From the NCBI GenBank assembly GCA_964247135.1, contig CAXTTL010000108.1, positions 1-15,698 of the forward strand: DNA of 15,698 nucleotides, written 5' to 3'. Each line of letters opens with the position of its first letter. Positions within the stretch are counted from its first letter, which is position 1. Shown in pieces: positions 2-15,696 of the stretch. The notes below the pieces were generated by a model. That model was not told the origin of the DNA and did not search any database. It saw only the letters and a list, made by a program, of their open reading frames with translations. The DNA is from an uncultured Deinococcales bacterium. GTDB taxonomy: Bacteria; Deinococcota; Deinococci; Deinococcales; JAAFIG01. The position numbers were made by a program, and so were the translations under genes.

Positions 2-1354
2 GCATTGAAATTGCGCCACAAGGTTGTCTCGAGCATTTATAATTTTTTGGATTCTGAGGGTTTCATTGGCGTCGAAACGCCGATGCTGACAAAGTCCACG
101 CCCGAGGGCGCCAGGGATTATCTCGTGCCGTCCCGCACCAACCCTGGCGAGTTTTACGCGCTGCCCCAATCGCCGCAACTTTTCAAGCAACTCTTGATGA
201 TCGCCAATTTTGACAAGTATTTTCAGATCGCGCGTTGCTTCCGCGACGAGGACTTGCGGGCAGACCGCCAACCCGATTTTACGCAACTCGATATTGAAAT
301 GAGCTTCGTCGATGTGGACGACGTGCTCGAGTTGAATGAACGCTTGATTCAAGATGTTTTCAAAAAAGCCCTGGATGTGGATATTCCAATCCCTTTTCCA
401 CGTCTCCCCTACAAGGACGCCATGAACCGTTTTGGCTCTGACAAACCCGACCAGCGCTTTGGACTCGAATTTAACGATGTCTCAGGTATTCTTAAAGATT
501 CTGGTTTTGGAGTGTTTAAAGCTGCGCTCGAGTCTGGAGGCGCGGTGAAGGTCTTGACCGCGCCAGCCGAATTGTCGCGCAGGCAAATCGAGGCACTCGA
601 GTTTCAAGCCAAACAATACGGGGCAAAAGGGCTGGCGTGGGCAAAAGTGGTGGCTGGGTCGCTCGAGGGTGGAATCTCGAAGTTCCTCTCCCCTGCCGAA
701 GTTACTGGCTTGCTCGAGGTCACAAGGGCACAGGCTGGCAGCACCTTGCTCTTTGGGGCGGACACCTGGGACACTGCCGTCAGAGCCTTGGGCGCGGTTC
801 GTGTGGCGCTCCGAGACGAACTTAAACTCATCACCGCCGAATCGCCGCGCTTTCACTTTTCTTGGGTGGTGGACTTTCCACTGCTCGAGTTTGATGCCGA
901 AAGAAACGCTTACACGTTTATGCACCACCCCTTCACCAGCCCGACGCTCGAGGATTTACCAAAATTTGGCACCCCCGAGATGGGCAGCATGAAGGCTCGA
1001 GCCTATGATCTTGTGCTGAACGGCTTTGAAGTTGGCGGCGGCAGCATCAGGATTCATCAACCCGAAGTCCAAGAAAAAATGTTCAACGCGATTGGCTTTA
1101 GCACCCAGGAGGCTCGGGCGCGATTTGGATTTTTCATGGACGCCCTCGAGTACGGCACGCCGCCCCACGGCGGCATCGCTTGGGGAATTGACCGCATGGT
1201 GGCGGTCATGGCAGGTGCGGACAGCATCCGTGACGTGATCGCCTTCCCGAAAAATGCTCGAGGTGCAGATATCATGGCGGACGCGCCAAGTGCGGTGGAT
1301 GCCAAACAACTCGAGGATTTGCACATCAAACTGAGCGAGAAAAGTACAGCTTGA
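2..1354 (+). CDS. aspS: Aspartate--tRNA ligase (5' end outside window)
   Basis: Motifs [86 protein letters not shown] and IRDVIAFPK. Frame is open to the window edge. Confidence 0.98.
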
Positions 1355-1379
1355 ACTCGGGCAATCGCCAAGGTGAGAC

Positions 1380-2459
1380 ATGTCACGAATCTTTTGGTTG
1401 TTGCTTTGTGTTGTGGCATTCCTACTTTTGGTTCAAACTCGAGCCATAGAAACGCAATCAATCTGTGGGTCAACGCCTGAAACCTCAACGCCATTGTTAA
1501 AGTTGCCCGCTGTGGTTTCGGGCAGGGTTGCGTTTTATGCGGCGGCGTACCGAAACGGTGTCTTGATACCCAATACTGCTGTCGCCGTAGGTGATCCAAG
1601 CGCTGTGTATCCGATGGAAAGTATGCACAAGACTTTTGTGGTTCACGCCGCCATGCGAGCGGTGGATGCTGGAACATTGCGGCTTGAGCAAAAATTCAAA
1701 ACCACGTCAGCCAATCAAAGTATCGAAACCTACCCGAAGGGTTCAAACAGCCTGATCGAATTGGCAAAACGCGCGATTGCCAAGAGTGACAATACAGCGA
1801 GCGATATACTTCACACGGCGGTTGGTACAGCATCTCTGGCTCGAGATATTAAATCGATTAGCCCTTGTACCACGATTTTACTGACCAGCAAGGCGTACTG
1901 GGCGGCGCAGGGCGGGTTGTCCTCGGGTGTGCTTGGAAAAGACTTGCAGGCTGGCGCTCAGCGTTATGCCACACTGCCGTTTGAGCAACGACTTTTGGTC
2001 GCTTCGCGCTTAAATGCCGCCGCTCAAAAGGTGAAAGCCTCCGCAGTTGAACGTGCCATTGATCGATATTTTCACAGCGCAAGCTACACCCCAGTACTCG
2101 AGTTATGGTTGCAAAACACCACGACTGCACGAGCGTTTACAGATTTGTTGGTGAACGTAATACTGGCAAATGATTTAAAGCCGCAAACACGCAAAGTCTT
2201 TCGTCAGATCATGATATCAGGCTGCTGTTTTTCAAAGAATTCTCCTTTGCATTCGGTTTATCGAGCGGCAAAGGCTGGCAGTGGATGGCGAATGCTGATG
2301 TTGAGCGGTTATGCAGAATTGCCGCAAGGTTTGAGGTTGGCTTATACCTATCTGAACGATCAAAGCAATGGTTTGGATGCTGAGGTCATGGAAAAGCAAA
2401 TTCGTCCAATCAACATTTGGATCGATAAGTTACTGATCAGGCTAAAGGTTCAAAATTGA
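1380..2459 (+). CDS. Secreted serine hydrolase, class A beta-lactamase-like / PBP fold
   Basis: N-terminal hydrophobic signal; SxxK (ESMHK), SDN (KSDNTASD) and KTG-like (KAGSG) motifs in the expected order; TTTARA segment; RBS-like AAGGTGAG upstream. Confidence 0.8.
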   Translation: MSRIFWLLLCVVAFLLLVQTRAIETQSICGSTPETSTPLLKLPAVVSGRVAFYAAAYRNGVLIPNTAVAVGDPSAVYPMESMHKTFVVHAAMRAVDAGTLRLEQKFKTTSANQSIETYPKGSNSLIELAKRAIAKSDNTASDILHTAVGTASLARDIKSISPCTTILLTSKAYWAAQGGLSSGVLGKDLQAGAQRYATLPFEQRLLVASRLNAAAQKVKASAVERAIDRYFHSASYTPVLELWLQNTTTARAFTDLLVNVILANDLKPQTRKVFRQIMISGCCFSKNSPLHSVYRAAKAGSGWRMLMLSGYAELPQGLRLAYTYLNDQSNGLDAEVMEKQIRPINIWIDKLLIRLKVQN

Positions 2460-2485
2460 CCGGCAACCCCAAGTGGAGTTCGTTA

Positions 2486-2526
2486 TGTGAATTAATTCAC
2501 GATTATTTTTTGCTTGTGAATTAATT
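2486..2526. promoter_or_regulatory. CRP/FNR-like box TGTGA-N6-TCACG (contains perfect palindrome GTGAATTAATTCAC) plus a partial second copy
   Basis: 2486-2501 is TGTGAATTAATTCACG; TGTGAATTAATT is repeated at 2515-2526. Confidence 0.35.
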
Positions 2527-2549
2527 ATTCTATTTTTACCTTCTTTAAC

Positions 2550-2592
2550 TCGGTGAAAAGAAACCCTGACCAGCCGTCTCACTGGTCAGGGT
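2550..2592 (-). terminator. Rho-independent terminator of the GH55-like gene
   Basis: 11-bp stem ACCCTGACCAG (2563-2573) / CTGGTCAGGGT (2582-2592) with an 8-nt loop, followed on the minus strand by TTCTTTT. Confidence 0.8.
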
Positions 2593-2613
2593 CAATCCTC
2601 TTAAGTTTAAGAT

Positions 2614-4509
2614 TTAGGGAAAACCAACGATATTTACTGGATTTGTTGCCACACCTTGCGCCGGTCCACCAGTGTCGTTAACCACATGGTCTATGACACC
2701 ATTGCCACCAAGTGAGACGGTCAACAGGTCGTGTAATTTAACCCCCGCCGTGACTGGAACCTCGAAGCCACGCGCCGCGTGAATCGTAGGGTCAACATTA
2801 AAAAAACAGTAGCTTCCCAGACCCCAAGCCTCGTGCGTTTTGACAGAATCCGCGACCTTGTAGGCAGGGTAACCATTGATGCCATCGTGACTCCAGGCGG
2901 CTTGATTCGGCGGATCGTAAGGCATCTCGTTTTGGAACATGATCGTCCGACCGCGCTCGCCGTTCCAGATGACTTGGGTTTTCTGAAAATGTTCGACAAA
3001 CAGACCGTATGCCGTGACATCATCGCCATTGACCAGCACCCCAGTGTCGGCGGTGTTCAGCGTCCAGCCGACGCCGTTGCCGTGATCGGCTCGCCAAACC
3101 CAAAGGTCGTCCAATAAAACATTGTCGCTGTTGATCACCAAACTGGTCGTGGCTTTGCCAAGCGTTGCGCCGCCGATTCTAAAGAAAACATCTTGAAGCG
3201 AACTCGGGTCGTTGGGGTCACTCCTGTGGGCGCGGCGATTGCCAACTTGAAGCAGGTTGGGCGAGTTTTTGGTGCCAGCGTCAAACATCAAACCGGCAAG
3301 CTTCACGCCTTTCACGTCGCTCACTTTCATTGCCACGATACCGTCATCGGGAATCAGGGTCGGAAAACCCAGACCAAGCACGACCGTGTCGGCTCGTTTG
3401 ACCTGAATGGTGTCCTCGAGATGATAAATCCCTGGGGTGAAAATTAAGTTTTGACCTCGAGCCAGGGCGTCATTGATTTCCTCCTCGGAGTCGGATGGTT
3501 TGGCGACAAAAAATCGATTGATCGGGATCGATTGACCAGCCGCTGAACCACCGCTCCAAGTTGTACCAAGCGAATCGCGGCGCAAATCGGGAACGAAGAC
3601 CTTGTAAAGACCAGCCGAATCAACGTATAGAAACGGTTTCTCGCGGGTCACAGGGCTTGTTGCCAAGGTGGTGTAGGGCGCAGGATCATAGGCTGTGCTC
3701 GAGAAGGATTGGGCGGGAGCGCCAATCACGCCAGAGAAAACCTGATTCCAAACCCCGTTGGACCAACCGCCGATGCTGCTGTCGCGCACCAGAAATTGCT
3801 GCTGAGAACCGTTGATGATAAAACCGGTCTGCGAGTCGGAGATAAAGCCACCGCTGGCAAACTGCGGACCGGCGGTGCAGTAATCCATCAGCGTCAAGTT
3901 GCCGCCGGTGATATTGACCCTGCGCAGCGGCGCGGCTTGAGACACCGCCCAAAAATTGCCCGAGGAACGACAATCTGCCAGACCCTTGACGTTGACGGTC
4001 AAGTTCGAGAGTGAACGCCAAAAATTGTCGAGCGCGATACAGTTGTTGGCACTCAAACAGCGGTTGTAAACGTCAACGTGACCGTTGATCATGACATCTG
4101 TGGGCAATGCACCGAGTCCAGCCACCTCGGTGTAATACCCGACCTGAAAGACCAGCGGGTTCGCGTCGCTGCCGTAAACGCCAGGTTTGAACAAAAGGCT
4201 GTAACGCTGCGCGCCCATCTCGTTGTCAACTTGCTGGTTGGCGATGGCGTCAACCGTCGCCTGAATTTGACTGAGCGGCATACTTGGATCAAAGATTTTC
4301 ACGTTGGGTCCAAAATCAACCTTTCGAGATTTCAGGTCAGACGAAACGCCAGTCTGCTCGAGGTTGCTTGCGGCGAGGTCCGCTGGAATTGTTTGTTGAC
4401 CGCAAGCGCCGAGAACCACGATCAAACCGCTCAACCAAGCCAAGGGCGAACTTACGGCGTTTCGGACAAAAAGATCAAAAAAACGACTCGATTTTTGGGG
4501 ATGATCCAT
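2614..4509 (-). CDS. GH55-like exo-beta-1,3-glucanase, predicted lipoprotein
   Basis: Start ATG at 4509 with RBS AGGAGAAAGGA; lipobox LIVVLGAC; motifs DFGPNVKIFDP, LLFKPGVYG, GYYTEVAGLG, NFWRSLSNL, WAVSQAAPLRR, WRADHG, GLFVEHFQK, FQNEMPYDPP and HEAWGLGSYCFF, as I recall them from actinobacterial GH55 (Lam55A-type) beta-helix enzymes. Confidence 0.8.
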   Translation of the reverse strand: MDHPQKSSRFFDLFVRNAVSSPLAWLSGLIVVLGACGQQTIPADLAASNLEQTGVSSDLKSRKVDFGPNVKIFDPSMPLSQIQATVDAIANQQVDNEMGAQRYSLLFKPGVYGSDANPLVFQVGYYTEVAGLGALPTDVMINGHVDVYNRCLSANNCIALDNFWRSLSNLTVNVKGLADCRSSGNFWAVSQAAPLRRVNITGGNLTLMDYCTAGPQFASGGFISDSQTGFIINGSQQQFLVRDSSIGGWSNGVWNQVFSGVIGAPAQSFSSTAYDPAPYTTLATSPVTREKPFLYVDSAGLYKVFVPDLRRDSLGTTWSGGSAAGQSIPINRFFVAKPSDSEEEINDALARGQNLIFTPGIYHLEDTIQVKRADTVVLGLGFPTLIPDDGIVAMKVSDVKGVKLAGLMFDAGTKNSPNLLQVGNRRAHRSDPNDPSSLQDVFFRIGGATLGKATTSLVINSDNVLLDDLWVWRADHGNGVGWTLNTADTGVLVNGDDVTAYGLFVEHFQKTQVIWNGERGRTIMFQNEMPYDPPNQAAWSHDGINGYPAYKVADSVKTHEAWGLGSYCFFNVDPTIHAARGFEVPVTAGVKLHDLLTVSLGGNGVIDHVVNDTGGPAQGVATNPVNIVGFP

Positions 4510-4815
4510 GACAATCCTTTCTCCTGCTGACCTGCCGAGTAAATATCTGCACCTACATTTCGTGTCTTGCCAATTGGGCAAAAGTTCGTTCCTGATCTGG
4601 CAGGTTCGCCAAACATTACCGATCTTAAAAGGGTCATATTGAAATGTCGATTCCGCTAAAAAAGCGAAACAATCATCTGGTCAAATCATGTAAACAACAG
4701 CACAAATGAATTTTATGTTGTGCATCCATTCTTACTGAAGCAAAAGATCGAAAAAGTACGTTCGGCTACGTTTCAAAATCGGTGCGAAAGTCTAAATTTC
4801 AAACAACTTTGCCGC

Positions 4816-5922
4816 TCAAGCAACCCGAATCCCAGCCACAAAAACGGCTTGAACCTCGAGCCGATCATCAAGCACCACCATATCGGCGTCGCAGCCAGGC
4901 TCGAGTCTGCCCTTTTTTTTCAGTCCCAAATAGCGTGCGGGGTGGCTGACGGCAAGTTGAACTGCCGTTTCAAGCTTGAGTCCAGCACCAACCGCATTTC
5001 GCACGGCTTGGTCCATCGTCAGCAGGCTGCCCGCCAGCGACCCGTTCTCGAGCCGCGCCGCGCCGTCCTCGACATGCGCCATTTGCCCGCCGAGGTCGTA
5101 ACTGCCGTTTGGCATTCCGGCAGCCCGCATGGCGTCGGTGATCAGCATCAGGCGGTCTGGTTTGGCGTTGAGGGCGGCTTTAAAACTCGAGAAATGCACA
5201 TGATGCCCGTCGAGAATCAATTCAGCCCAGACGTCGGGGTTGGCAAGGATCGCGCCGACGATGCCAGGATTGCGCCCCTCGAGTCCGCCCATCGCGTTGA
5301 ACAGGTGCGTGCCGCTGGCGAAACCACCAGCATTTTCAACGATGCGAAACGCTGACTCAACTTGGTCGGTGCCGGCGACGCTGTGCCCGATGCTGACCCT
5401 CACCCCTGCTCGAGCGAACACGGCGCAAGCCTCGAGTGCCTGGGGTTGTTCGGGGGCGATGGTGACGACCCGAATCACCTCAAAGTCCAGAACCTCTTGA
5501 ACGCGGTCCGTGGTGGGTTCGACCACAAAATTGGGTTGAGCGCCCAATCGATGCGGACTGACAAACGGACCCTCGAGGTGAACACCCAACACTCGGGCGC
5601 CAGAACTCGGCTCGAGCATGAATTGTTTGGCGTTCGCCAGGGCGGTCATGACGCTATTCCAGGGATTGGTGATGGTCGTGGCGAGCAAACCAGTCGTACC
5701 GTGTTTGGCGTGGAAATTTGCCATACCGCGAATTCCAGCAAGCCCGTCCATCGTGTCAAAACCGCCGCCGCCATGAACGTGAACATCGATAAAACCAGGC
5801 ACGATACACGGCGCGTTTTGAGGCACTGAGGCGTGGCTGATCGTTGTTATCGAAGCATCAAAATCAATCTTGCCGACTTGCCAACCGTTGGGCGTCAGAA
5901 TGCGTCCTTGCAATGAAGTCAT
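4816..5922 (-). CDS. nagA: N-acetylglucosamine-6-phosphate deacetylase
   Basis: PGFIDVHVHGGGG, GVHLEGPF, THLFNAM, LILDGHH, LITDAM, LAGSLLTMD and G.DADMVVLD motifs; ATG at 5922. Confidence 0.95.
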   Translation of the reverse strand: MTSLQGRILTPNGWQVGKIDFDASITTISHASVPQNAPCIVPGFIDVHVHGGGGFDTMDGLAGIRGMANFHAKHGTTGLLATTITNPWNSVMTALANAKQFMLEPSSGARVLGVHLEGPFVSPHRLGAQPNFVVEPTTDRVQEVLDFEVIRVVTIAPEQPQALEACAVFARAGVRVSIGHSVAGTDQVESAFRIVENAGGFASGTHLFNAMGGLEGRNPGIVGAILANPDVWAELILDGHHVHFSSFKAALNAKPDRLMLITDAMRAAGMPNGSYDLGGQMAHVEDGAARLENGSLAGSLLTMDQAVRNAVGAGLKLETAVQLAVSHPARYLGLKKKGRLEPGCDADMVVLDDRLEVQAVFVAGIRVA

Positions 5923-5931
5923 AAACAAATT

Positions 5932-7137
5932 TTAAGGCTTTGGCGCTCGAGATTCCAAAGCCCAGGCTTTAAGCTGGCTGGGGGTCACAGGCTGCTCGAG
6001 CAGGCGTTGAAACCAAGCCAATTTGTCATTGCCAGCCAGCAGCGGCTCGAGCAGGTCATAACCCGTGGTGTAGGTGTAAATGTAGGCTCTGGCATGGTGA
6101 ATAAACTCGAGTCTCTTGTCGGCTTGGGTTGGTGTCAAGAGTTGATAATGCTGCAAATACTCGAGCACGGCTGACGGTGTTTGAAACTCCTCAAACAGCA
6201 TCAGCGCGCCATTGCAGGCGGCATAATTCAGGTCTGCTCGAGCCTGTTGAATGTGAAGTTCGGTTTGTACTTCTTCCAAGTTGAGGTTTAATCCCGCAAC
6301 GTTGCAGAGTTCATCGGTGATCCAAACAGCCAACTCGGATTGGTCCATGACAACACCCAGCGCACTGGTGGCAATCCCTTCGGCGAGAACACATTCGGGC
6401 GAATCGAGCAGTTGAATCCCAAATTCTTGCCAGTCGTTCCCCTGCACCAGGTTTTGTTCTTTTAAGACGTGTTCGGTGTGATGACCTGGGTAAGATTCGT
6501 GGGCGACCAAATCTGGCAGATCGGTGATAAATTGCGGCAAATCGGTGTTGACCTCGATTCTCGAGCGACCATTTCCCAAATACCAGTTGTAACCGCCCCA
6601 GGGTTTATTTTGCACCAAGTCGTATTGACACGATTCGGGTTCGGGCAAGCCAAATAATTTTTTGCTGCGTTCTCGCAACTCGAGCGAAATTGCGTCCATC
6701 ACAGCTTGAATTCGATTGGGTTGGATGATGAATTTGTCTCTGAAGGTTTGTCTGCGATCATTCAACGAGCCGATACCTGGCAGCAGTGCTTCGAGTTTTT
6801 GGTGGGCAGCTTCAAACAAACCCTCTGGTTTACGAGTTGGCTCGATGTCGTGCAAGCCTTTGACTTCCTCGAGAAACGAGATCGAATTTCCAGATTTGAG
6901 TTTGACAAGGGTTTGCATGGCTCTGATTTGCACACTCAAATAATCGCGCCGTTCCGAAGACCCGAGATTGGCAATTTCGGTTTGGAGTAGCTCGAGTTCC
7001 TGTGCCAGGTCGTTTAAATCGCTCGAGAACGGCTGAGTCCATTCAAGATTGCCGAAATAGGCATCGATAAAACCAGGCTTGTGAAAGTTGACACCGTGTG
7101 CGGCGCGAATATAACGTTCGGCAATGGAGGCGCTCAT
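5932..7137 (-). CDS. DUF885-like putative zinc metallopeptidase
   Basis: AHESYPGHHTE, downstream EGIA and YIYTYTTG motifs; 401 aa; stop lies 9 nt before the nagA start. Confidence 0.65.
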   Translation of the reverse strand: MSASIAERYIRAAHGVNFHKPGFIDAYFGNLEWTQPFSSDLNDLAQELELLQTEIANLGSSERRDYLSVQIRAMQTLVKLKSGNSISFLEEVKGLHDIEPTRKPEGLFEAAHQKLEALLPGIGSLNDRRQTFRDKFIIQPNRIQAVMDAISLELRERSKKLFGLPEPESCQYDLVQNKPWGGYNWYLGNGRSRIEVNTDLPQFITDLPDLVAHESYPGHHTEHVLKEQNLVQGNDWQEFGIQLLDSPECVLAEGIATSALGVVMDQSELAVWITDELCNVAGLNLNLEEVQTELHIQQARADLNYAACNGALMLFEEFQTPSAVLEYLQHYQLLTPTQADKRLEFIHHARAYIYTYTTGYDLLEPLLAGNDKLAWFQRLLEQPVTPSQLKAWALESRAPKP

Positions 7138-7142
7138 GGTTT

Positions 7143-7151
7143 AGAATACCA
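7143..7151 (-). promoter_or_regulatory. Extended -10 (TGGTATTCT) 5 nt before ATG; probable leaderless promoter
   Basis: Minus strand reads TGGTATTCT-AAACC-ATG, with no SD sequence. Confidence 0.6.
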
Positions 7152-7185
7152 GTTCGGTTGCCCCTGGTTCGCAAATTCTTAAACT

Positions 7186-7194
7186 TGGTATAAT
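7186..7194 (+). promoter_or_regulatory. Extended -10 promoter of etfBA
   Basis: TGGTATAAT followed by a GAGG SD (7202-7205) and ATG at 7215. Confidence 0.65.
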
Positions 7195-7214
7195 ATTTGG
7201 CGAGGTTTACATCC

Positions 7215-7967
7215 ATGAAAATTCTATGTTTAATCAGGCAAGTCCCTGACGCCGAAGCCCGAGTCAAAGCGCAAAACGGTCGGGTCGATCTCGAGGGGGC
7301 AACCCTGGCGCTGGACGGCATGGACGAGTACGGGGTCGAACAGGCGCTGCGAATCAACAGCGACGGCGCGAACACCGTGGCGGTCGCCCTGGGCGGCGCA
7401 CGATTTGAGGACGCGATCCGTCGGGCGCTGGCAATGGGACTCGAGCGAGCGATTCACGTCGAATCGAGCGAATACCTGGATGTGGTGACGCAAGCCAAAA
7501 TCCTGGCTAGAATCGTACTTGACGAACAGCCGGACATCGTTTTTTGTGGCGGACAACACGCCGACACCGACTCGCAGGCTTTGGGGGCGGCGCTGGCGCA
7601 GGCATTAAATTGGAATCAAATCACCTGGACGACGGCGCTGGATATTGACAACCCGAGCGTCAAAGCCACGCATGATGTCGACGACGGCAAGGAACAACTC
7701 GAGCTTGGGTTGCCTTTGGTCATCACCACCCAACAGGGCTTGAACGAGCCGCGCTATCCAACCTTGCCGAACATCATGAAAGCCAAGAAAAAAGAGATTC
7801 GCAAGGCGAGTTTGGCGGATTACGGCGTTACGGGCGGCAAAGTGCGGGTGGTCAGTCAAGAGATTCAGGAGAAGAAACGCTTGAACAAACTGATCGACGG
7901 CAAAGATGCCACGGCTGCCGCCGAAGAGCTGGTCAAACTCTTGCACAACGAAGCGAAGGTGATTTGA
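7215..7967 (+). CDS. etfB: Electron transfer flavoprotein beta subunit
   Basis: [48 protein letters not shown]. Confidence 0.95.
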
Positions 7968-8918
7968 ATGATTTTGATTCTGGCAGAGCACGATGGCGTT
8001 AAACTCAAAAAAACCTCGCTCGAGATGGTTTGGGCGGCTCGAGGTGTCCATCCAGAAATCACGGTTGCCCTTTTGGGCGCGGGCGCGGGCAATGTGGCGG
8101 AGGAAGCCGCAAAATACGTGGGGCAAGTCTTGGTGGTTGAAGACCCCAAACTCGAAACGTATGACGCTCGAGTCTACAGCCAAGCCTTGCAACAGATCGC
8201 TGAGCAGGCTGAGGCGAGCGTGGTCTTGATTGCGGGGACCCGAGCCGGGCGTGAACTCGCGCCGCGACTTGCGGTACGCTTGGATGCGCCCTACCTCGAA
8301 GATGCCGTCAAACTTGAGGGCATCGATGGCGGCTTGCGAATTTCGCACTATGCATTTTTGGCTCGGGTCACCGAGACGCTCGAGGCGACGGCTGCCGTGA
8401 TCGTCGCCACCGTCAAACCAAACACGCATCCCGCCGCCGAATCAAACCCGCAGCAGGGAGAAATTTTTGAGGTCGAACTCGAACTGGACGCCTCGAGTGT
8501 CCGTGTTTTGGGTCGCACCCAAGAGAAGACCGCTCGGGTTGCCCTGACCGAAGCCAGCCTGGTCGTGACCGGCGGGCGCGGCATGGGCAGCCCTGAGAAT
8601 TTTAAACTGATCGAAGACCTTGCCGATGTGCTCGGGGCGGGCGTCGGCGCGACCCGAGCGGCGGTGGACGCGGGTTGGCGACCCTACGCCGAACAGGTCG
8701 GACAAACCGGAAAAACGGTACAGCCCAACGCCTATATTTGCGCCGGGGTGTCGGGCGCGGTGCAGCACCTGTCTGGCATGGGCAAAAGCAAATACATTGT
8801 CGCCATCAACAAAGATGTCGAAGCACCGATTTTTAAGGTTGCCGATTACGGGATCATCGGCGACCTCAACTTGATTCTGCCGGCGCTGACCGCCGCCGCC
8901 AAACGATTGAAAGATTAA
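7968..8918 (+). CDS. etfA: Electron transfer flavoprotein alpha subunit
   Basis: [71 protein letters not shown]; abuts the etfB stop. Confidence 0.96.
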
Positions 8919-8965
8919 CTGGTTTTTTCGTGTCCTTGTTCAACATCTCGAGGATAAAATAATGT

Positions 8966-8997
8966 GGATGCTCGAGGGTTCACTGACTCGAGCATTC
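8966..8997. other. Intergenic hairpin with CTCGAG in both arms (possible terminator/stabiliser)
   Basis: GGATGCTCGAG - 10-nt loop - CTCGAGCATTC, with one G.U pair. Confidence 0.5.
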
Positions 8998-9034
8998 AAA
9001 CGCCAAATGCACGACCATGACTTAAACTGCATTG

Positions 9035-9508
9035 GTGAACCCAGACCTCGAAATGTTGTTGCGTTTGCTGGCGGCGATGGTCCTGTGCGGCTTGATCGGC
9101 TTTGAACGCGAGGCTCGAGGAAAATCGGCGGGTTTGCGCACGCACATGCTCGTCGGCTTTGCATCGGCAATGTTTGTGGTTTTGGGCGAGATCGTCATGG
9201 CGAGGGAGAGCGCTCGAGGCTATGCGGCGCTGAAACTCGACCCGATTGCGATCATCGGGGCGACGATTTCGGGCATCAGTTTCTTGGGCGCGGGCACCAT
9301 TTTCATGAGTCCCGCAGGGCGCAAACACGGTTTGACCACCGCCGCCAGCATCTTGGGTTCTGCGGGTGTGGGCATGGCGTGCGGACTCGAGCGCTATGTT
9401 CTGGCAGTTGGCAGCACGGTTTTGTTGGTTTTGATCTTGGGGTTTTTTGGCTACCTGGAGCGTGAAATCATCAAACAGCAAGTCAAACACGCCACGGACG
9501 AGCCATGA
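9035..9508 (+). CDS. MgtC/SapB family membrane protein
   Basis: GLIGFERE, KSAGLRTHMLV, GISFLGAGTI, GLTTAASI. GTG start chosen because TAAACT (9023-9028) lies 6 nt upstream (leaderless-type). Confidence 0.9.
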   Translation: MNPDLEMLLRLLAAMVLCGLIGFEREARGKSAGLRTHMLVGFASAMFVVLGEIVMARESARGYAALKLDPIAIIGATISGISFLGAGTIFMSPAGRKHGLTTAASILGSAGVGMACGLERYVLAVGSTVLLVLILGFFGYLEREIIKQQVKHATDEP

Positions 9509-10110
9509 AACGCATTGGTTTAACCGGCAGTATTGGCGCGGGCAAAAGCACGGTGGCTAAAATGTTACGCGAAAAGGGCATTCCGGTACTCGACGCCGAT
9601 GCCGTGGCTCGAGAGATTTCAAATTCGCTCGAGGTTCGAGACGCTGTTCGAGAAAGCTTCGGCGCCGAATATGTGCTCGAACACGGTTTAAACCGCCCAA
9701 AACTGGCGGAACTGGTTTTTGCCAAACCCGAGGCTCGGGCGCAACTGAACGCGATCATTCACCCAAAGGTTCGTATTGAAATGAACCGATTGCAACTCGA
9801 TCTCGAAAAAACTGGAGTCGCCGCCGTGGTTCAGGATATTCCATTGTTGTTTGAAAGCAAACTCGAGGGTTTATTTGACGCCGTGATCTTGGTCGATGCG
9901 CCACTCGAGACTCGACTGAAACGGGTCTTGGCTCGAGACGGCATTGCGCGTGAAGACTTTCTGGCTCGTGACGCGGCGCAAATGCCAGCCAGTGAAAAAC
10001 GACTTCGCGCCGCCCTGACGCTCGAGAATGCTGGTGACGGGTTGAAACTTTTAAGGCAGCTCGATGACGCACTGTTGAAACTTGGAATAATGCCAAAGAA
10101 TCGGCATTAA
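9505..10110 (+). CDS. coaE: Dephospho-CoA kinase
   Basis: IGLTGSIGAGKSTV P-loop, DADAVAR, LNRPKLAELVF, LNAIIHP, DIPLLFE, QMPASEK; ATGA overlap with the MgtC stop. Confidence 0.95.
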   Translation: MKRIGLTGSIGAGKSTVAKMLREKGIPVLDADAVAREISNSLEVRDAVRESFGAEYVLEHGLNRPKLAELVFAKPEARAQLNAIIHPKVRIEMNRLQLDLEKTGVAAVVQDIPLLFESKLEGLFDAVILVDAPLETRLKRVLARDGIAREDFLARDAAQMPASEKRLRAALTLENAGDGLKLLRQLDDALLKLGIMPKNRH

Positions 10111-10146
10111 AATCTTCAGACCAACAGTGAAACGGTTGTTGAAGAC

Positions 10147-10751
10147 TCAGCGCTTGCGCTGGTGGTAACGGCGCATCTTGTCTCGAGCGCCGCAGGTATC
10201 CATGCTGCACCATCGCCGACTTCCGTTTTTGCTTGAGTCTACAAACAACCAGCCGCAGTCTGGGCAAGCCTTAAGCCGCTCGAGGGTCGCATCACCGAGC
10301 AGGCGAATTGCGTCGTGCGAGATCGGATGAAGAATGACTTCGGTCTCGTTGCTGATCGCCCAACGTGGTCTGTACGTACTTCGGTGTGCACAAGTTTGGC
10401 GCTGGCGATTGCTCTGGTGTGCGCCTTGAGCACTTTTTGAAGATCGCCTTGGGCGGGAGTGACCTGTGCCGCCAGACTCGAAAACACGCGTTTGAGAACT
10501 TCGCGCAGCTTGTGAGCGCGTTTTATCGAGTCGCTGGCGAGTTTAGGGTTACGTTGGGCGAGTTGCTCGAGTTGTCTTGCTTGACCCTTTGAAAGCAAAC
10601 CCATCTCGAGACCCCAGTCTGTCAGGTCAGCGTAAGGAGCGGGGTCGTCAAGTGTTGTGCCGCGGCTCGCAGGGTTGGCGTTGATGAAATCCAGGCACAG
10701 CGTCCCACCCACGCTCGAAGATGGTTTGGGTGTTTCTAAGTCGGGCAGCAT
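10147..10751 (-). pseudogene. ABATE + CGNR zinc-finger transcriptional regulator with a 1-nt frameshift near 10375-10385
   Basis: N-terminus GGTLCLDFINA...DLTDW...LREVLKRVF. A second frame gives YRPRW...ILHPISHDAIRLL...RLKACPDCGWLFVDSSKNGSRRWCSMDTCGARDKMRRYHQRKR*. Span is 605 nt, one short of a multiple of 3. Confidence 0.85.
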
Positions 10752-10760
10752 ATCTGTAGT

Positions 10761-10835
10761 TTACCACCAAAAGCAATTTGACAGGTAATCAGATTTTTTG
10801 TAGAATTTTACCATCTAAATTAGTTTAACTGGTAA
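10761..10835. promoter_or_regulatory. Two TTACC-N18-GGTAA inverted-repeat operators overlapping divergent promoters
   Basis: Copies at 10761-10788 and 10808-10835. Plus-strand promoter TTGACA (10778-10783)-N17-TAGAAT (10801-10806). Minus-strand TGGTAAACT lies 6 nt before the regulator ATG. Confidence 0.75.
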
Positions 10836-10852
10836 AAGATCGAGAGGCGAAA

Positions 10853-12061
10853 ATGCAAGATCATCCAGACAGCCAAAAGCCCCAAGGTGATGGTTTACGG
10901 CTTGGCTCACTGCGTACCTCGAGTCCATTTGTGCGAGGTTCTTGGTACTGCCTGGGGTATTGGGGCATCACCGGAGCTTACCTCAATTTCCTCAACGTGT
11001 TCTTCCACGAAATCAACCTAAGTGTCGGTCAAATCGGTGTCCTGAGCGCCCTCGGTCCATTGCTCGCCATCACACTTGCCCCCTGGTTGGCGTGATGGGC
11101 AGACCGGCAATCGGCACGGGTTGATCTGGTACGAATTGCCTTGATTGGAATTGGGTTCTCTTTGCTAACCCTATTTTTTGCTCGAGGGTTCGCGGTTGTC
11201 CTGGGGGTTTACTTCGTTTTGGTCGCCTTCACCAGCACGGTACAACCCGCCGCTGACGGTTTGATTGCCCGCATGGCAGCCAGTCACCAACTCGAGTATG
11301 GAAGGATGCGTTTGTGGGGTGGGTTGGGGTTTGCGGCGATCTCATCGCTTTCGGGTTTGTTGTGGACTAAATTTGGCTACGCACCAATATTTCTGGCGTG
11401 CGGAACGCTGTTCTTGCTGTTTGCTCCAAGTGCGAGATTGCTCGAGGAGGGCAATGCCGCGCCATTGGATCAGCGTTTTCGGTTGTCCCAAGCATTGCGC
11501 GATCCAGGAATGCAAACGGCGCTGCTGGTGTCGTTGGTGGTTGGATTGGGATGGGGCTTGTCCACACCATTTCTCGGGGTTTACATCGAAATTTTGGGTG
11601 GCAACGCCACCCAGATTGGCGTGTTGTACGCGGTAGCCGCAATCGTCAGTAGCCAAGCAATGAGGCTCCAGGGACGCGGGGTGCAAATTATTGGTGAGGC
11701 AGGCATGTTGGCGCTCGGCTGTGCCTGCATGGCAGTGAACTATGGCGTCATTGCTGCGGTTCGTGATCCGAACTGGTTCATTGTTTCAGGGGCGCTCGAG
11801 GGTGTGGGCTTTGCGTCGTTTTTTATTGGCACAGTGCAAATTGTTGATCGGCGCACAGAAATTGGGCGTTCAATCACCATGCAATCAATCCGTAACGGTT
11901 TGACTTATGGAATTGCCCCGCTGCTGACCAGTCCTGTGGGTGGGTTTGTGTTCGGCAGGTTTGGTGCGGGTGTGTTTGCAATCACAGCCAGTTTGATGCT
12001 CATCGGTGTGTTGATTGCTTTGCTCGGGCGTGAGGGATTTAAACAGTCTACCCATCACTGA
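10853..12061 (+). pseudogene. MFS transporter (MFS_1_like / nucleoside:H+ symporter-like) with in-frame TGA at 11093-11095
   Basis: ORFs 10853-11095 and 11141-12061 share a frame; read-through gives LAPWLA*WADRQ (motif A-like); YGRMRLWGGLGF motif; about 12 hydrophobic segments in total. Confidence 0.85.
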
Positions 12062-12075
12062 AAATCGTCATTTTC

Positions 12076-12104
12076 TTCTCGAGTCGCCAGACTCGAGGGT
12101 CTTT
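12076..12104 (+). terminator. Terminator-like hairpin built from two CTCGAG copies
   Basis: TTCTCGAGTC-GCCA-GACTCGAGGG followed by TCTTT, about 15 nt after the MFS stop. Confidence 0.6.
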
Positions 12105-12145
12105 ACGTCTGACCAAAAGCTTCTTAAAACTGCATAAAATATCCC

Positions 12146-12607
12146 ATGAACGTTCTCAATTCGGTTTTGCTCGCCTCGCGTTGGCTGATGATCGCGCCGG
12201 TCTTTTCCCTCATTTTTGGATCGGGTTATTTTGCTTACCTCACCGCACTCGAGACGATAAAGGGCTTCACCGCCGAATCAACCCAGAAAAGTGCTTTGTA
12301 CTTGATTCAAGCCGTGGACTCGAGCCTTTTGGCGGCGGTCTTGCTGATTTTTGCCCTCGGTTTGTACGAGTTGTTTATCGCGCCCATTGTTGTACCAGAA
12401 GACCATCCTTTCAGGCGGGTGTTGGTGATCGAATCGCTCGACGATCTCAAAGGCAAACTCGCCACGGTGATTGTCATGCTGCTGGTGGTCAAGTTTTTTG
12501 AACGCAGCCAGGAATTAAAAAGCGCAAATTTCCTCGACCTGCTGATGCTGGCGGGCGGCGTGGCGTTGCTCGGCGTGGGCTTGTGGTTGACCAAAAAGCA
12601 GCAATAA
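12146..12607 (+). CDS. YqhA (UPF0114) family membrane protein
   Basis: SRWLMIAPV, VDSSLLAAVLLIFALGLYELFI, IESLDDLKGKLATVIV; TAAAAT 5 nt upstream of ATG. Confidence 0.85.
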   Translation: MNVLNSVLLASRWLMIAPVFSLIFGSGYFAYLTALETIKGFTAESTQKSALYLIQAVDSSLLAAVLLIFALGLYELFIAPIVVPEDHPFRRVLVIESLDDLKGKLATVIVMLLVVKFFERSQELKSANFLDLLMLAGGVALLGVGLWLTKKQQ

Positions 12608-12623
12608 GTTTGGGTTAGACCCC

Positions 12624-12652
12624 TTGAAAGCCTTGTTCAAACTTGCTACAGT
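12624..12652 (+). promoter_or_regulatory. Sigma70-type promoter for the riboswitch-terC transcript
   Basis: TTGAAA (12624-12629)-N17-TACAGT (12647-12652), about 10 nt before the riboswitch. Confidence 0.6.
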
Positions 12653-12663
12653 CACATGACAAC

Positions 12664-12776
12664 TTGAGGGAGTAGCCACCTTTTGGCGCTCGAGGTCGTC
12701 AATACGAAAGTCATCGGCTTTCCGTCTCGGGCACAGTTTTTAAGACTTCGGTTTTAAACCTGATGGCGAGACTCAA
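12664..12776 (+). ncRNA. yybP-ykoY manganese riboswitch
   Basis: TTGAGGGAGTAGCCA...TCGTCAATAC...TGGCGAGACTCAA; P1 TTGAG/CTCAA; stem GCTCGAGG/TCTCGGGC; a UUCG-capped arm; lies immediately before the GGAGG SD of a TerC/Alx gene. Confidence 0.9.
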
Positions 12777-12785
12777 ATCGGAGGA

Positions 12786-13727
12786 ATGATGGATATCCCG
12801 ATTTGGGCTTGGCTCGCATTTTTATTTGGCGTGTTGGTGATGTTGGCACTCGATTTGGGCGTTTTCAACCGCAAGTCGAGTGTCGTCTCGAGCAAACAGG
12901 CGGCGATTTGGTCGGCGGTTTGGGTCATGCTGTCACTTTGTTTTGCCGGTTTGATGTTTTTTTGGCAAGGTCCGCAACGCGGTCTGGAATGGATCACCGG
13001 TTACTTGATCGAGTACAGCCTGGCGGTCGACAATATTTTTGTCTTTGTGCTCGTGTTCAGCGCATTTGCCGTCCCCGTCGCCCACAGACGGCGCGTACTG
13101 TTTTGGGGCATTATCGGCGCATTGGTCATGCGCGGCGCGATGATTGCCCTCGGCGCGGCATTGCTCGAACAATTTCACTGGATTTTATACGTCTTTGGCG
13201 GGATACTTTTGCTTGCGGGTTACAGCATGATGTTCAGTAAAAAAGAGCAAGCGAGCGATCTCGAGCACTACGAATTCGTCAAACTGGCACGGCGGTTGAT
13301 CAAGATTTCACCACAATACGACGGACAAAAATTTTTCACCGTGCAAAACGGAATGCGCACGGCGACGCCGCTGTTTTTGGTTTTGATCGTGATCGAATTG
13401 ACCGATTTGGTTTTTGCCGTGGACAGCATTCCCGCCGTTTTTGCGGTCACTCGAGAGCCGTTTATTGTTTTTACCAGTAACGTCATGGCAATTCTTGGAC
13501 TTCGCAGTTTGTACGTGCTGCTCGAGGGTTTTGTGGATCGGTTTGTCTATTTAAAAACGGGCTTGTCGATCATTTTGGTCTTTATCGGCGCAAAATTATT
13601 GTTGCTGGACATTTTTAAAATCCCGACAGCCATCTCGCTTGTCGTGGTGATCTCGGTACTCGCCATCAGCGTCATTGCCAGCATCCTGAAAACCCCAAAC
13701 ACGCGCAAGGTTCTCGAGAAAGCATAA
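12786..13727 (+). CDS. alx: TerC/Alx family metal (Mn) homeostasis membrane protein
   Basis: LALDLGVF, GYLIEYSLAVDNIFVF, RVLFWGIIGALVMRG, ATPLFLVL, DLVFAVDSIPAVFAVT, FIVFTSNVMAILGLRSLY. Confidence 0.92.
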   Translation: MMDIPIWAWLAFLFGVLVMLALDLGVFNRKSSVVSSKQAAIWSAVWVMLSLCFAGLMFFWQGPQRGLEWITGYLIEYSLAVDNIFVFVLVFSAFAVPVAHRRRVLFWGIIGALVMRGAMIALGAALLEQFHWILYVFGGILLLAGYSMMFSKKEQASDLEHYEFVKLARRLIKISPQYDGQKFFTVQNGMRTATPLFLVLIVIELTDLVFAVDSIPAVFAVTREPFIVFTSNVMAILGLRSLYVLLEGFVDRFVYLKTGLSIILVFIGAKLLLLDIFKIPTAISLVVVISVLAISVIASILKTPNTRKVLEKA

Positions 13728-13756
13728 AAAAAGCTCAAGCCAAAATTGAAAGGAGT

Positions 13757-13894
13757 TTGATAAGAATTTGCCCCATTGATAAAGCACGATTTCTTAAATT
13801 CAACAAATTTGGCGTCATGATCGATATCTGCCCAGAATGCAAAAACGTCTGATTGGATCGCGGCGAACTCGAGACATGCGACCCGAACGAGTAA
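13757..13894 (+). pseudogene. Decayed zf-TFIIB (Zn-ribbon) domain gene, absent from the ORF track
   Basis: After SD AAGGAG the frame reads (L)IRICPIDKARFLKFNKFGVMIDICPECKNV*LDRGELET..., matching the family pattern GVxIDxCPxCxGVWLDRGELE; the Trp codon is TGA (13850-13852). Confidence 0.8.
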
Positions 13895-13969
13895 CACTCA
13901 GCACCTGGCTTCTCAAACTTCGCACGCCGCTTTACCACTGATGCCAACTTGAGCGCAGCGTCCGGAAGT

Positions 13970-14206
13970 TCATTTCGGCAGCGTCTTCCAGCGCTCGAGC
14001 ACTTCCACGGGCACCTTCGGGAAGTTGGTCGGAACCGCCCGCCCCGCCTGATCTCTCTCGTTCAGCCCGTGGTACGAAATCCAAACATGGACCTCGCCAG
14101 GCTGGAACATGACCCAGTTCCGCTCGCGCACGACCGGCGTGCCAGAAGCGTCGGTGAGCTGCCCGGTCATCGCTAGGCTGGGAAGACGGCTGCGACGTTT
14201 CTCGAG
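13970..14206 (-). other. Possible orphan gene fragment or 66-aa hypothetical ORF (ATG 14170)
   Basis: Protein-like reading (LEKRRSRLPSLA)MTGQLTDASGTPVVRERNWVMFQPGEVHVWISYHG...; no clear RBS; family not recognised. Confidence 0.3.
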
Positions 14207-14249
14207 GCGCGGACCCGTGTCGGCACTGCAAGGTTTCGGGCGCCTGCCC

Positions 14250-14831
14250 TCAACGCTTGGTTAAAGCCAGCCAATCGCCCATCAGCTTCGCCTCGAGCAG
14301 TTGAGCCGAAGTTGGGGCGGTGCTCAGAACCGTCACGCTCAGCTTGAGGCTCGCCTTCGGTGGTCGCACGACGGCAAGAACGTCGTTTTCCGTATACAAG
14401 CCGATCAGATCGCCATCGTCCACTTTTTTGTTGCCGTTCACGTCCTGCCAGGCGATCAGGGCGTACTGACCATCCTCGAGTTTGGTGGCGCTGAACGCGG
14501 CGCTCTGGGTGCCGCTGCCGACAGTTACGAGCTGGCTTTTGGTCGCGTCGCACGCATCGGTCGCGTAGAAACAAGCCAGCACGACCGTGCCTTGGATCGT
14601 CGCGGGCGCTTGTACGTTCAAGCTCAGGGTGGCATGGTGGGTCTTGGCGCCGGCGGTGCCGCGCACGGTGAAGCTGTAAAGACCGTTGGTCACGCTTGAA
14701 CCGACCGCGACACTCAGGGTTGCTTGGGTGGCGGTGACGCTCGAAAAGGTCGCGGTGATGCCTGTCGGCACGTTCACCGCAGTCAAACCCACCGCATCAC
14801 TGAACCCGCCAACCCTCGAGATGTTCACTGT
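14250..14831 (-). pseudogene. C-terminal fragment of a secreted protein, probably an S8 serine peptidase tail (Ig-like domain + Ca-binding loop)
   Basis: TVNISRVGGFSDAVGLTAVNVPTGITATF...GLYSFTVRGTAG is Ig-like; GTVVLACFY...C...YALIAWQDVNGNKKVDDGDLIG follows; no start, signal peptide or catalytic domain upstream. Confidence 0.6.
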
Positions 14832-15696
14832 CCCAAGCAAGCCCGTCGCGGTACGCTTTTGGCAGCCGTTCAATCGCAACATACATGGCTGCCCTCTGAC
14901 CAGCGCTGGAATGGCATTTCGCCATCAGCACGAGTGCCTGGTTTTTGACTGTCGGGTTCAGACTCAAAGCCAACTCTTCTAAAAGCGCAAAAACCTGCTG
15001 GCTGTCCGAACTGCTACTTAAACCTCGAGCTGCCTCTAAAGCAAGTTCGTTTCTGGTTTCGCCCGTCGTGTACTTTAAAGCTTGAACGCGAACGTGTGCG
15101 GCAGCCACAACATCACCTTGGATTTCAAGTCTCAATGCGGCACTTTTCAGAATGCTTAAAGCTTGTGTAGGCTCGAGGTTTGCGATTTCGATCAATTGAT
15201 GGGTTTTTTCAGGCGTGTCTTGCAGCGCTTTGATGGCTGCGCGGGCAAGTTTGGTCAGTCGTGTTTTTGAAATGTTTTTGAAGCCCACTTCACGGTACAA
15301 GGGATGCGCAAATTCGGATTGGAACAAAATGCCGTTGCGCTCCAATACCCGCTTGGCTTTTTGAAAATCTTGAAGCTCGAGCTTTGCGACCTCAGACCAC
15401 AGTTCTGGTGTGCAATCCAAACCCAACACGGCTTTCGCGCCCAAAACCGCCTCGAGTTCCGGGGTATTCGCCGCATCTTTCAAAGTCTGCTCGAGCAGCG
15501 CTTCAACGGTGACTGGCATCAGCTCAAATTCTGGTTTGCGCCATCGCCATTGTTTACCGTCGCTCCAAACAAACCCCTGCCTTGCCAGAAACCTGAAAAA
15601 CTCTACGGTAAACAGTGGATTCCCAGCCGCCCTCCCATGAATCCAGGTCATCGCCTTTGTTGGCAACAAGGCTTGAGCTTCATTTTCAAGCAGCTT
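14797..15696 (-). pseudogene. Large ATPase/TPR-type (AfsR/MalT-like) transcriptional regulator; 5' end outside window, 3' end apparently truncated
   Basis: AAGNPLFTVEFFRFLARQG, MPVTVEAL and FAHPLYRE motifs, then helical repeats that end abruptly where the Ig-like fragment begins. Confidence 0.65.

Follow-up and report, generated by a model that had tools for sequence, protein, structure and literature searches.

What makes the palindromic hexamer CTCGAG so abundant in the DNA of an uncultured member of the Deinococcales? The stretch analysed here (the window) is contig C108, 15,698 bases in length, of a genome designated G000 (5.09 Mb in 386 contigs, GC content 52.6%, rated 84% complete). The first-pass annotation had compared CTCGAG with HIP1, a highly iterated palindrome (HIP) of cyanobacteria, and had called the host non-cyanobacterial, which agrees with the closest named records of the AspRS gene at the start of the window: these are uncultured "Deinococcales bacterium" metagenome-assembled genomes (92-94% identical), and Deinococcus species reach 62-66%. 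Our analysis leaves very little doubt that CTCGAG is a HIP-like hexamer which has been inherited since the ancestor of a family of Deinococcales and is actively maintained by a force acting at the DNA level, rewriting codons and some amino-acid residues.

Within the window, CTCGAG is present exactly 89 times (5.7/kb), from positions 28-33 to positions 15490-15495, in agreement with the figure of about 89 obtained earlier by hand. In 200 dinucleotide-preserving shuffles the mean was 3.24 copies (standard deviation 1.85, maximum 10) and not one shuffle reached 89. The enrichment is therefore about 27-fold, and the former estimate of about 20-fold over some four expected copies was right as to the enrichment and too low as to its size. 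The hexamer is read as CTC|GAG at 51 sites, as xCT|CGA|Gxx at 17 and as xxC|TCG|AGx at 10, and 11 sites lie outside the 15 open reading frames (ORFs) of the window; the three examples of these phases cited earlier (326, 996 and 28) are correct in the frame of the AspRS gene (ORF 2-1354; Table 1).

The excess extends far beyond this contig. The genome contains 33,925 copies (6.66/kb, about 4% of all bases), which is 24.8 times the zero-order expectation. A maximal-order Markov expectation is unusable for CTCGAG, the pentamers of which are dominated by the motif itself; a motif-masked second-order model was used instead and predicts 565 copies, corresponding to a 60-fold excess. The genome-wide k-mer comparison proposed with the first-pass annotation thus came out in favour of a real enrichment, and the suspicion that it might be limited to one contig did not hold, since all 297 contigs of at least 5 kb carry at least 2.56 copies/kb (median 6.8). 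CTCGAG accounts for 62% of all occurrences of TCGA in the genome, and the remaining fifteen NTCGAN words are ordinary or depleted. The contigs of lowest density are conjugative or plasmid-like (TraG/TraC, RepA, primase), and even there 3.3-3.6 copies/kb are found; the pressure acts on resident foreign DNA too.

Amino-acid or codon usage does not explain these numbers, as had been argued from the presence of the hexamer in all three phases and in non-coding DNA. For the genome, a simple ORF-based gene set was used (4,558 ORFs covering 86% of the sequence), and synonymous codons were shuffled within each gene in five replicates genome-wide and in 200 replicates for the 15 ORFs of the window. Although this test is conservative, because CTCGAG has already shaped codon usage, the shuffles gave 14.1 ± 3.1 copies in the window (maximum 24) against 79 observed, and 3,875-4,151 copies in the genome against 28,647 observed. 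The coding phases comprise 17,457 sites for CTC|GAG and 4,579 and 6,636 sites for the two other phases, and the off-phase sites exceed the shuffled counts 11- to 13-fold. Non-coding DNA is denser (7.5/kb) than coding DNA (6.5/kb). Leu-Glu pairs are spelled CTCGAG in 17,431 of 22,699 cases (77%); outside this context CTC makes up only 15% of the Leu codons and GAG 33% of the Glu codons. For the CTC|GAG phase, shuffling that preserves dicodons would be a circular test because hexamers in phase 0 are kept by construction. In the two phases that span three codons, however, dicodon contexts predict 2,509 and 3,558 sites (arithmetic from context counts) against 4,574 and 6,642 observed, so that the excess persists in a check of this kind as well.

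The sites do not share an extended sequence. Flanking preferences are weak, with G at -1 and C at +1 in 39% and A at -3 and T at +3 in 37% of all sites (43% in non-coding DNA, the maximum at any position), and extensions to palindromic 8-mers are rarer than expected, at 0.44-0.92 of independence. What is iterated is therefore the hexamer alone. With no flanking base above 43% at any position, a mobile repeat similar to repetitive extragenic palindromic (REP) sequences or miniature inverted-repeat transposable elements (MITEs) is ruled out.

The excess characterizes a whole family. All 19 genomes sampled from the GTDB family of the host, uncultured Deinococcales from five genera including one complete single contig (G011), have 4.3-6.8 CTCGAG/kb. 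In another family of the order, f3, with a single, Deinococcus-like genus, all 21 genomes avoid the hexamer 5- to 50-fold (0.014-0.27/kb); an 80-kb sample of one of them, G014, contains three copies where synonymous shuffles give 12-19. In the remaining three families the density is 0.6-3.1 copies/kb. Four genomes from these three families were evaluated in 80-kb samples with a second-order Markov model. Among common hexamers, CTCGAG shows the strongest over-representation in G038 (observed/expected ratio, O/E, 5.4) and G019 (4.2), and its ratio is also high in G015 (3.0) and G013 (2.55); in the same test G011 reaches 11.2. Non-coding DNA of these samples carries 1.4-2.2 copies/kb, and the O/E of Leu-Glu is 1.4-1.6 against 0.9-1.05 for Glu-Leu. 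Because sister families display this milder excess, also in non-coding DNA, the bias seems to be older than the family and extreme only there. Taken together, the genomes establish CTCGAG as a vertically inherited signature of one uncultured family of the Deinococcales, present in its ancestor.

A scan of viral contigs for three close copies of CTCGAG returned mostly contigs of high GC content, none of them family-like among the matches listed. These matches include the IMG/VR viral or proviral contigs G102-G105 (GC content 0.62-0.71) with 2.4-3.7 copies/kb. CTCGAG and its reversed counterpart GAGCTC occur in them 43 and 0, 100 and 1, 98 and 5, and 18 and 1 times, respectively, an asymmetry also seen in some sister families.

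Comparison of the window with five genomes of the same genus (about 82% nucleotide identity) revealed that its sites are better conserved than their surroundings. In each relative 62-79% of the sites are intact, against 32-38% for control hexamers. At conserved amino acids, four-fold degenerate third positions are identical in 89.6% of cases inside CTCGAG and in 60.4% outside, and two-fold positions in 90.1% and 75.1%, respectively (five comparisons pooled, which are non-independent); the four-fold synonymous rate inside the hexamer is about five times slower than outside. Among 5,485 hexamer positions aligned in six genomes, 67 were site positions, occupied in all six genomes in 16 cases, in five genomes in 17, in four in 5, in three in 7, in two in 11 and in one in 11. 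A conserved core of sites thus coexists with continuing gains and losses. Losses are mostly single transitions distributed over all positions of the hexamer, and neither one-off variants nor same-genus losses showed a deamination hotspot of the 5-methylcytosine (m5C) type at any position. The nine classes of one-off variants have O/E values of 0.82-3.22, with transitions highest and no class depleted, and the C-to-T products are in excess (TTCGAG/CTCGAA 1.97, CTTGAG/CTCAAG 1.38). These variants look like decay products rather than drained precursors. They are skewed to the outer positions, with 4,847 at positions 1/6, 4,087 at 2/5 and 2,264 at 3/4.

The effect reaches into protein sequences. 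Of the 400 dipeptides in the genome, Leu-Glu shows the greatest excess (O/E 2.40), compared with 1.02 for Glu-Leu; Ser-Ser has 1.63. A codon alignment of AspRS from 13 family members and six Deinococcus-type orthologues gives a detailed view. The family genes (GC content 0.44-0.54; the G011 sample has 0.59) contain 8-15 CTCGAG sites and 7-10 Leu-Glu pairs, the Deinococcus-type genes 0-1 sites and 4-5 such pairs. Seven of the 22 sites in the union are present in nearly all family members and others are limited to one genus. Replacements linked to sites include VAA to VSS, FT to LE, PD to LE and AQA to ARA. At position 326 the Deinococcus-type orthologues read CTGGAG, CTGGAA, CTTGAG, CTCGAA or CTCGCC. 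At 996 all six encode Ala-Gln-Ala where the family has Ala-Arg-Ala, so that an amino-acid replacement accompanies the site, and at 28 they encode Val-Ala-Ala or Thr-Thr-Ala. Sites restricted to a single genus arrived with Lys to Arg or with Ser/Ala to Glu replacements: at 1257 the family's other genera read CCAAAG or CCAAGG, with a Lys that became Arg along with the site, and at 1310 the pair is Leu-Ser, Leu-Thr, Leu-Ala or Leu-Lys in other genera and in Deinococcus. The DNA-level pressure on CTCGAG alters codons as well as some residues. In G011, the 16S rRNA gene (C1:855337-856841, 1,505 nt) contains no CTCGAG, against 14 in its 3 kb of flanks; the pressure therefore gives way to strong functional constraint.

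Two estimates of the strength of this force can be made. The Jukes-Cantor-corrected four-fold rate ratio of about 0.20 would correspond to a scaled advantage S of about 2.7 in a mutation-selection-drift model, and the 60-fold equilibrium excess to S = ln 60, about 4.1. The force would accordingly be weak but present everywhere, comparable to codon-usage selection or biased gene conversion, and values of this size do not imply an essential function at each site.

Gaps between sites in the genome have a mean of 148 bp with a coefficient of variation of 0.96. Pairs closer than 30 bp occur at 0.51 times and pairs at 31-60 bp at 0.90 times the average density, which is then flat up to 1.2 kb, and apart from the codon period no periodicity was found over this range. 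A gap of 6 is never seen; it would create GAGCTC, a word absent from the genome. Along genes the density is near-uniform (about 6.5/kb), with a peak of 12.2/kb within 30 bp downstream of stop codons, and convergent spacers are densest (8.7/kb) compared with divergent ones (7.2/kb).

The mechanism which we propose is a weak and pervasive DNA-level force that would favour intact hexamers at about one per 150 bp, in any phase, in non-coding DNA and in plasmid-like DNA. With a population-scaled advantage of about 3-4 per site, such a force could fix synonymous codons and capture three quarters of the Leu-Glu pairs. The same advantage would push through tolerated amino-acid replacements and would be too weak to invade 16S rRNA. 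The accumulation of sites may be due to selection or to a bias in transmission or conversion. The likeliest reader would be a conserved core machinery of DNA transactions, serving the uptake or recombination of kin DNA or strand-directed repair; a similar role is now put forward for HIP1 of cyanobacteria. That CTCGAG is a tag of kin DNA read by core uptake, recombination or repair machinery is, by analogy with known systems, a plausible reading which falls somewhat short of being probable. Competence genes are present in the family (ComEC in five, DprA in four and the secretin in five of five genomes), but they are only permissive for an uptake role because they are equally present in control genomes of Thermus and Deinococcus. 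The density peak behind stop codons, the dense convergent spacers and the deficit of pairs below 30 bp are likewise permissive for such a role. The DNA uptake sequences (DUS) of Neisseria and the uptake signal sequences (USS) of Pasteurellaceae are likewise short words over-represented family-wide, located in coding sequence in any frame and enriched just downstream of genes in hosts with competence genes, and uptake sequences are thought to be able to accumulate by transmission bias alone.

Several points weigh against the kin-DNA reading. Competence genes are common in the phylum, including the family that avoids CTCGAG, and their presence does not discriminate. The reader is postulated by analogy, with no site-reading protein identified. 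Known uptake sequences are asymmetric 9- to 12-mers at a density of about 1/kb and CTCGAG, a 6-bp palindrome lacking conserved flanks at 6.7/kb, does not match this definition. Thermus reportedly takes up DNA without sequence preference. The estimate of S comes from five non-independent comparisons of one 15.7-kb window under a simple mutation-selection-drift model, and site conservation cannot tell selection from biased repair or conversion. Finally, the effect of HIP1 on transformation requires methylation according to the available part of the work of Kamoku and Nielsen, and here no candidate methyltransferase was found.

A broader version of the kin-DNA reading is more tentative and clearly less probable. 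It holds that an ancient core system of the whole order reads CTCGAG as an "own" tag for uptake, recombination or repair, independently of a recognisable cognate methyltransferase; its action would be mild in the Thermus- and Meiothermus-like families, turned into avoidance in the Deinococcus-like one and extreme in one uncultured family.

Among the alternatives, methylation-linked biased repair survives best, although we regard it as unlikely. A CTCGAG methyltransferase, unrecognised or non-orthologous between genomes, would here be combined with methyl-directed or very-short-patch-like repair that restores and creates sites, so that these accumulate without individual function; this is the model of the first-pass annotation and that of Elhai for HIP1. 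In the text available from Elhai 2015 (PMC4390886), which deals with cyanobacteria only, HIPs co-occur with cognate methylases and methyl-directed repair is proposed, enzymes forming m5C and N4-methylcytosine (m4C) both serve CGATCG, and one-off variants of HIP1 are biased to outer positions like those of CTCGAG. The density of 6.7/kb is also near the chance density of a 4-bp Dam-type site (about 3.9/kb by our own arithmetic), which would suit a mark for strand discrimination. Furthermore, the family genomes are rich in methyltransferases, the sequence of such an enzyme does not reveal its specificity, and with 84% completeness the assembly of the host may lack genes.

Gene content, however, lends no support to the XhoI/PaeR7I-like orphan methyltransferase with specificity for CTCGAG that had been postulated. 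The XhoI nuclease family (PF04555) was found in none of 13 family genomes and in one of eight other genomes of the order (G015), and Vsr (PF03852) in none of five family genomes. XhoI-type restriction-modification does not fit on the first of these counts, nor does very-short-patch repair of the Dcm/Vsr type on the second, together with the finding that deamination products are not depleted. The lack of any depleted one-off class, the excess of C-to-T products and the missing m5C-type hotspot also speak against methylation-linked biased repair. Of 12 other family genomes, 11 were found to have C5 methylases, G008 being the exception, and 11 to have N6_N4 methylases, the exception here being the complete G011; yet G008 and G011 still have 4.3-4.6 CTCGAG/kb.

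A search for six Pfam DNA-methyltransferase families in G000 yielded 11 genes, ten of which have a recognisable partner or the architecture of another type of restriction enzyme (Table 1). A partial N6_N4 methylase at the end of contig C4 probably supplies the N-terminus that the NotI-linked gene on C207 lacks, judging from overlapping profile positions. None of the 11 stands out as a free-standing candidate for CTCGAG. TaqI_C-type methylases are patchy (four of 12 family genomes). The PvuII-linked N6_N4 methylase, an orphan at first sight, is paired with its nuclease and was found in six of 19 family genomes, in three of which the match is weak or fragmentary. Both C5 methylases adjoin nucleases, of the NgoPII and Eco29kI families. 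The permuted methylase, the eleventh gene, is found in seven of 19 genomes with internal stops in two copies, and MT-A70 only in G011, beside a BglII-family nuclease. The D12 methylase adjoins a nuclease of the SacI family, and a SacI-like nuclease is present in 11 of 19 family genomes and in the CTCGAG-avoiding G092; the pair is 84% identical to that of G011 and explains the absence of GAGCTC but not the excess of CTCGAG. None of the methyltransferase genes examined is common to the whole family. As the motif is family-wide and every restriction-modification component examined is patchy, we infer either that the agent is part of the vertically inherited core or that non-orthologous enzymes share one specificity, and a mobile XhoI-type restriction-modification system is in all likelihood not the agent.

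Two further loci were noted during these searches. In G011, a D12-class (Dam-like) methylase at C1:4320418-4321128 is flanked by genes for a glycoside hydrolase and a release factor, has no adjacent nuclease and appears to be an orphan; it was not seen in G000. In G015, the XhoI-family nuclease adjoins an N6_N4 methylase (C1:75199-76562); this genome still has 1.9 CTCGAG/kb and is not depleted of the hexamer despite an apparent cognate restriction system.

Table 1. CTCGAG sites of the window and DNA-methyltransferase genes of the host genome G000
Feature	Position or contig	Strand	Details
Dispersed array of 89 CTCGAG	28..15495	.	78 inside 15 ORFs, 11 outside
Phase-2 site gtC TCG AGc (Val-Ser-Ser) in AspRS	28..33	+	11/13 family orthologues, alignment column 26
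Phase-0 site CTC GAG (Leu-Glu) in AspRS	326..331	+	10/13 family orthologues, alignment column 324
Phase-1 site gCT CGA Gcx (Ala-Arg-Ala) in AspRS	996..1001	+	11/13 family orthologues, alignment column 994
Genus-specific gain in AspRS	1257..1262	+	5/6 same-genus orthologues, alignment column 1255
Genus-specific gain in AspRS (Leu-Glu)	1310..1315	+	6/6 same-genus orthologues, alignment column 1308
Three non-coding sites (8947, 8971, 8987)	8947..8992	.	113-bp spacer between etfA-like stop (8918) and mgtC-like start (9032)
Two non-coding sites 14 bp apart	12078..12097	.	just 3' of ORF for major facilitator superfamily (MFS) transporter (stop 12061)
Three sites outside ORF set (13868, 13994, 14201)	13868..14206	.	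from site positions and ORF set
C5 methylase			beside NgoPII-family nuclease
C5 methylase			beside Eco29kI-family nuclease
N6_N4 methylase	C36		beside PvuII-family nuclease, between fabF and alaS
N6_N4 methylase			beside MvaI/BcnI-family nuclease
N6_N4 methylase	C207		beside NotI-like nuclease
D12 methylase	C320		beside SacI-like nuclease
MmeI-family enzymes (two)			
Type I HsdM			with HsdS
SNF2-fused enzyme			1,499 aa
Permuted methylase			466 aa, next to proS; neighbouring ORF without assigned family

The words that G000 avoids most strongly are GGCC (380 copies), CCGCGG (11), CAGCTG (15) and GAGCTC (0), and they match the recognition families of the partner nucleases. GAGCTC is absent from 5.09 Mb with 1,369 copies expected, and the window contains neither GAGCTC nor GGCC. 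GGGCCC has one copy and GAGCCC/GGGCTC ten on both strands together, and about 50 of the 64 palindromic hexamers have an O/E below 0.5, in a genome with at least six type II restriction-modification gene pairs. CTCGAG is recognised by systems of the XhoI/PaeR7I/BsuMI type, and a restriction system that resides in a genome normally makes its own site rare there; CTCGAG is in excess, whereas GAGCTC, GGCC, CCGCGG and CAGCTG are depleted. In enterobacteria, Dcm/Vsr repair is a site-specific bias that raises the methylase's own site CCWGG. Its effect is small compared with the 25- to 60-fold excess of CTCGAG, for which Vsr is lacking in the five genomes searched and the T-containing one-off neighbours are not depleted.

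Less probable again, and in our view rather improbable, is a structural site to which a nucleoid-associated or chromosome-organising protein binds as a dimer, with selection keeping the density high and fairly even. The palindrome would suit a dimeric binder, the exclusion of close pairs is of the order of a protein footprint, and the density is near-uniform over genes and spacers. A nucleoid role is also favoured for HIP1 by Xu et al. 2018 (PMC5861425), where, in the text available, an excess of 15-300x is given and site conservation is taken to argue for selection. On the other hand, no candidate protein was identified, the spacing lacks periodicity up to 1.2 kb, and half the chromosomal density on plasmid-like DNA is hard to account for.

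Very improbable is a relic, in which a burst in the family ancestor made the sites and no present-day force acts on them. The seven AspRS sites shared by nearly all members would fit; however, synonymous positions within sites change about five times more slowly than outside, there are gains specific to genera and to genomes, and at between-genus divergence decay to the conservation of control hexamers would be expected, which is already down to 32-38% within the genus. Weakest of all, and barely credible, is a by-product of codon, dicodon or amino-acid usage or of REP- or MITE-like mobile copies: the CTC|GAG phase does hold 61% of the coding sites, but synonymous shuffles recover only 14% of them, the off-phases and the denser non-coding DNA have no place in such an explanation, CTC and GAG are minority codons elsewhere and the flanks lack a conserved sequence. 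Relic and by-product together receive only a very small share of our confidence, and the remainder goes to explanations not listed here.

Returning to CTCGAG as an actively maintained HIP-like hexamer, the comparison with HIP1 (GCGATCGC) made at the outset proved apt for a bare palindrome that is genome-wide, found in all phases, conserved, and overriding codon and amino-acid choice. Both are short, GC-rich and hyper-abundant (15-300x for HIP1, 25-60x for CTCGAG), occur in coding and non-coding DNA, are conserved between genomes and have outer-biased one-off variants. In both cases the host possesses many restriction systems and a large number of other palindromes are avoided, and HIPs are known for lineage-specific replacement motifs; the alternate cyanobacterial HIPs GGCGCC, GCsGC and rCCGGy are given in the accessible part of PMC4390886. 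CTCGAG has three features by which HIPs are recognised, namely a genome-wide excess, occurrence in all frames and in intergenic DNA, and conservation above background. The differences concern the phylum (Deinococcota), the length (6 bp against 8 bp), and the density (6.7/kb against 0.3-2.7/kb for HIP1 in the available text of PMC4390886). In addition, CGATCG is avoided in G000 (47 copies against 1,369 expected), so the motif is not HIP1 proper, and no cognate orphan methyltransferase was found in this genome. For HIP1 a periodicity of 10-90 kb is reported, whereas distances between CTCGAG sites were examined to 1.2 kb only and are not periodic.

In the literature on HIP1, Kamoku and Nielsen describe, in the part available, a methylation-dependent increase in transformation, and a role as a DNA-uptake "watermark" is proposed in the accessible text of Rodriguez-Cruz et al. 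2026. The available portion of Elhai 2015 (PMC4390886) mentions neither CTCGAG nor Deinococcus. Full-text literature searches returned no description of CTCGAG hyper-abundance in Deinococcales, and to our knowledge the case is undescribed. It looks like a second, independent case of HIPs, which were so far known only from cyanobacteria.

The window and its genome show some further features. The two sites at 12078..12097 fit the genome-wide density peak directly behind stop codons. In an AT-rich spacer at 2483-2539, a 14-bp sequence, GTGAATTAATTCAC, forms a perfect palindrome and is accompanied by a second, partial copy; it resembles an operator of the CRP/FNR type (TGTGA-N6-TCACA). Short matches to this spacer recur on several contigs of same-genus genomes, and a terminator-like hairpin lies 3' of it (approximately 2563-2592). 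At the end of the window, the region from about 15385 to 15690 is 67-81% identical to sequences on several contigs of relatives, which points to a repeated domain or a gene family. No Pfam family matches the long minus-strand ORFs at 2614-4581, 5932-7137 and 14797-15696 (655, 401 and 299 aa) at E <= 0.001, and no tRNA gene or Rfam family was found in the window. Genome-wide, TTTTTG/CAAAAA, GGTTTT/AAAACC and TTTTGA/TCAAAA are the next most enriched words after hexamers derived from CTCGAG, at 5-5.8 times the zero-order expectation.

For about 30 years HIPs have posed a puzzle in cyanobacteria, with biased repair, nucleoid structure and a DNA-uptake watermark as competing explanations. An independent and denser case in another phylum would show that the HIP phenomenon is convergent, and it would make it unnecessary to assume that the HIP1-specific methylases DmtA and DmtC are indispensable. 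CTCGAG also illustrates clearly how pressure at the DNA level can alter proteins to a measurable extent. In practical terms, XhoI-based cloning, k-mer-based binning and the detection of horizontal transfer will behave oddly for these genomes, and the density of CTCGAG is a ready marker of DNA native to the family. Within one order, avoidance, mild excess and extreme excess form a natural gradient for the profiling of candidate genes. If an order-wide tag system were true, HIPs would be a convergent general strategy of bacteria and no cyanobacterial oddity, and their function would become testable outside cyanobacteria because Thermus-like relatives are transformable and genetically tractable.

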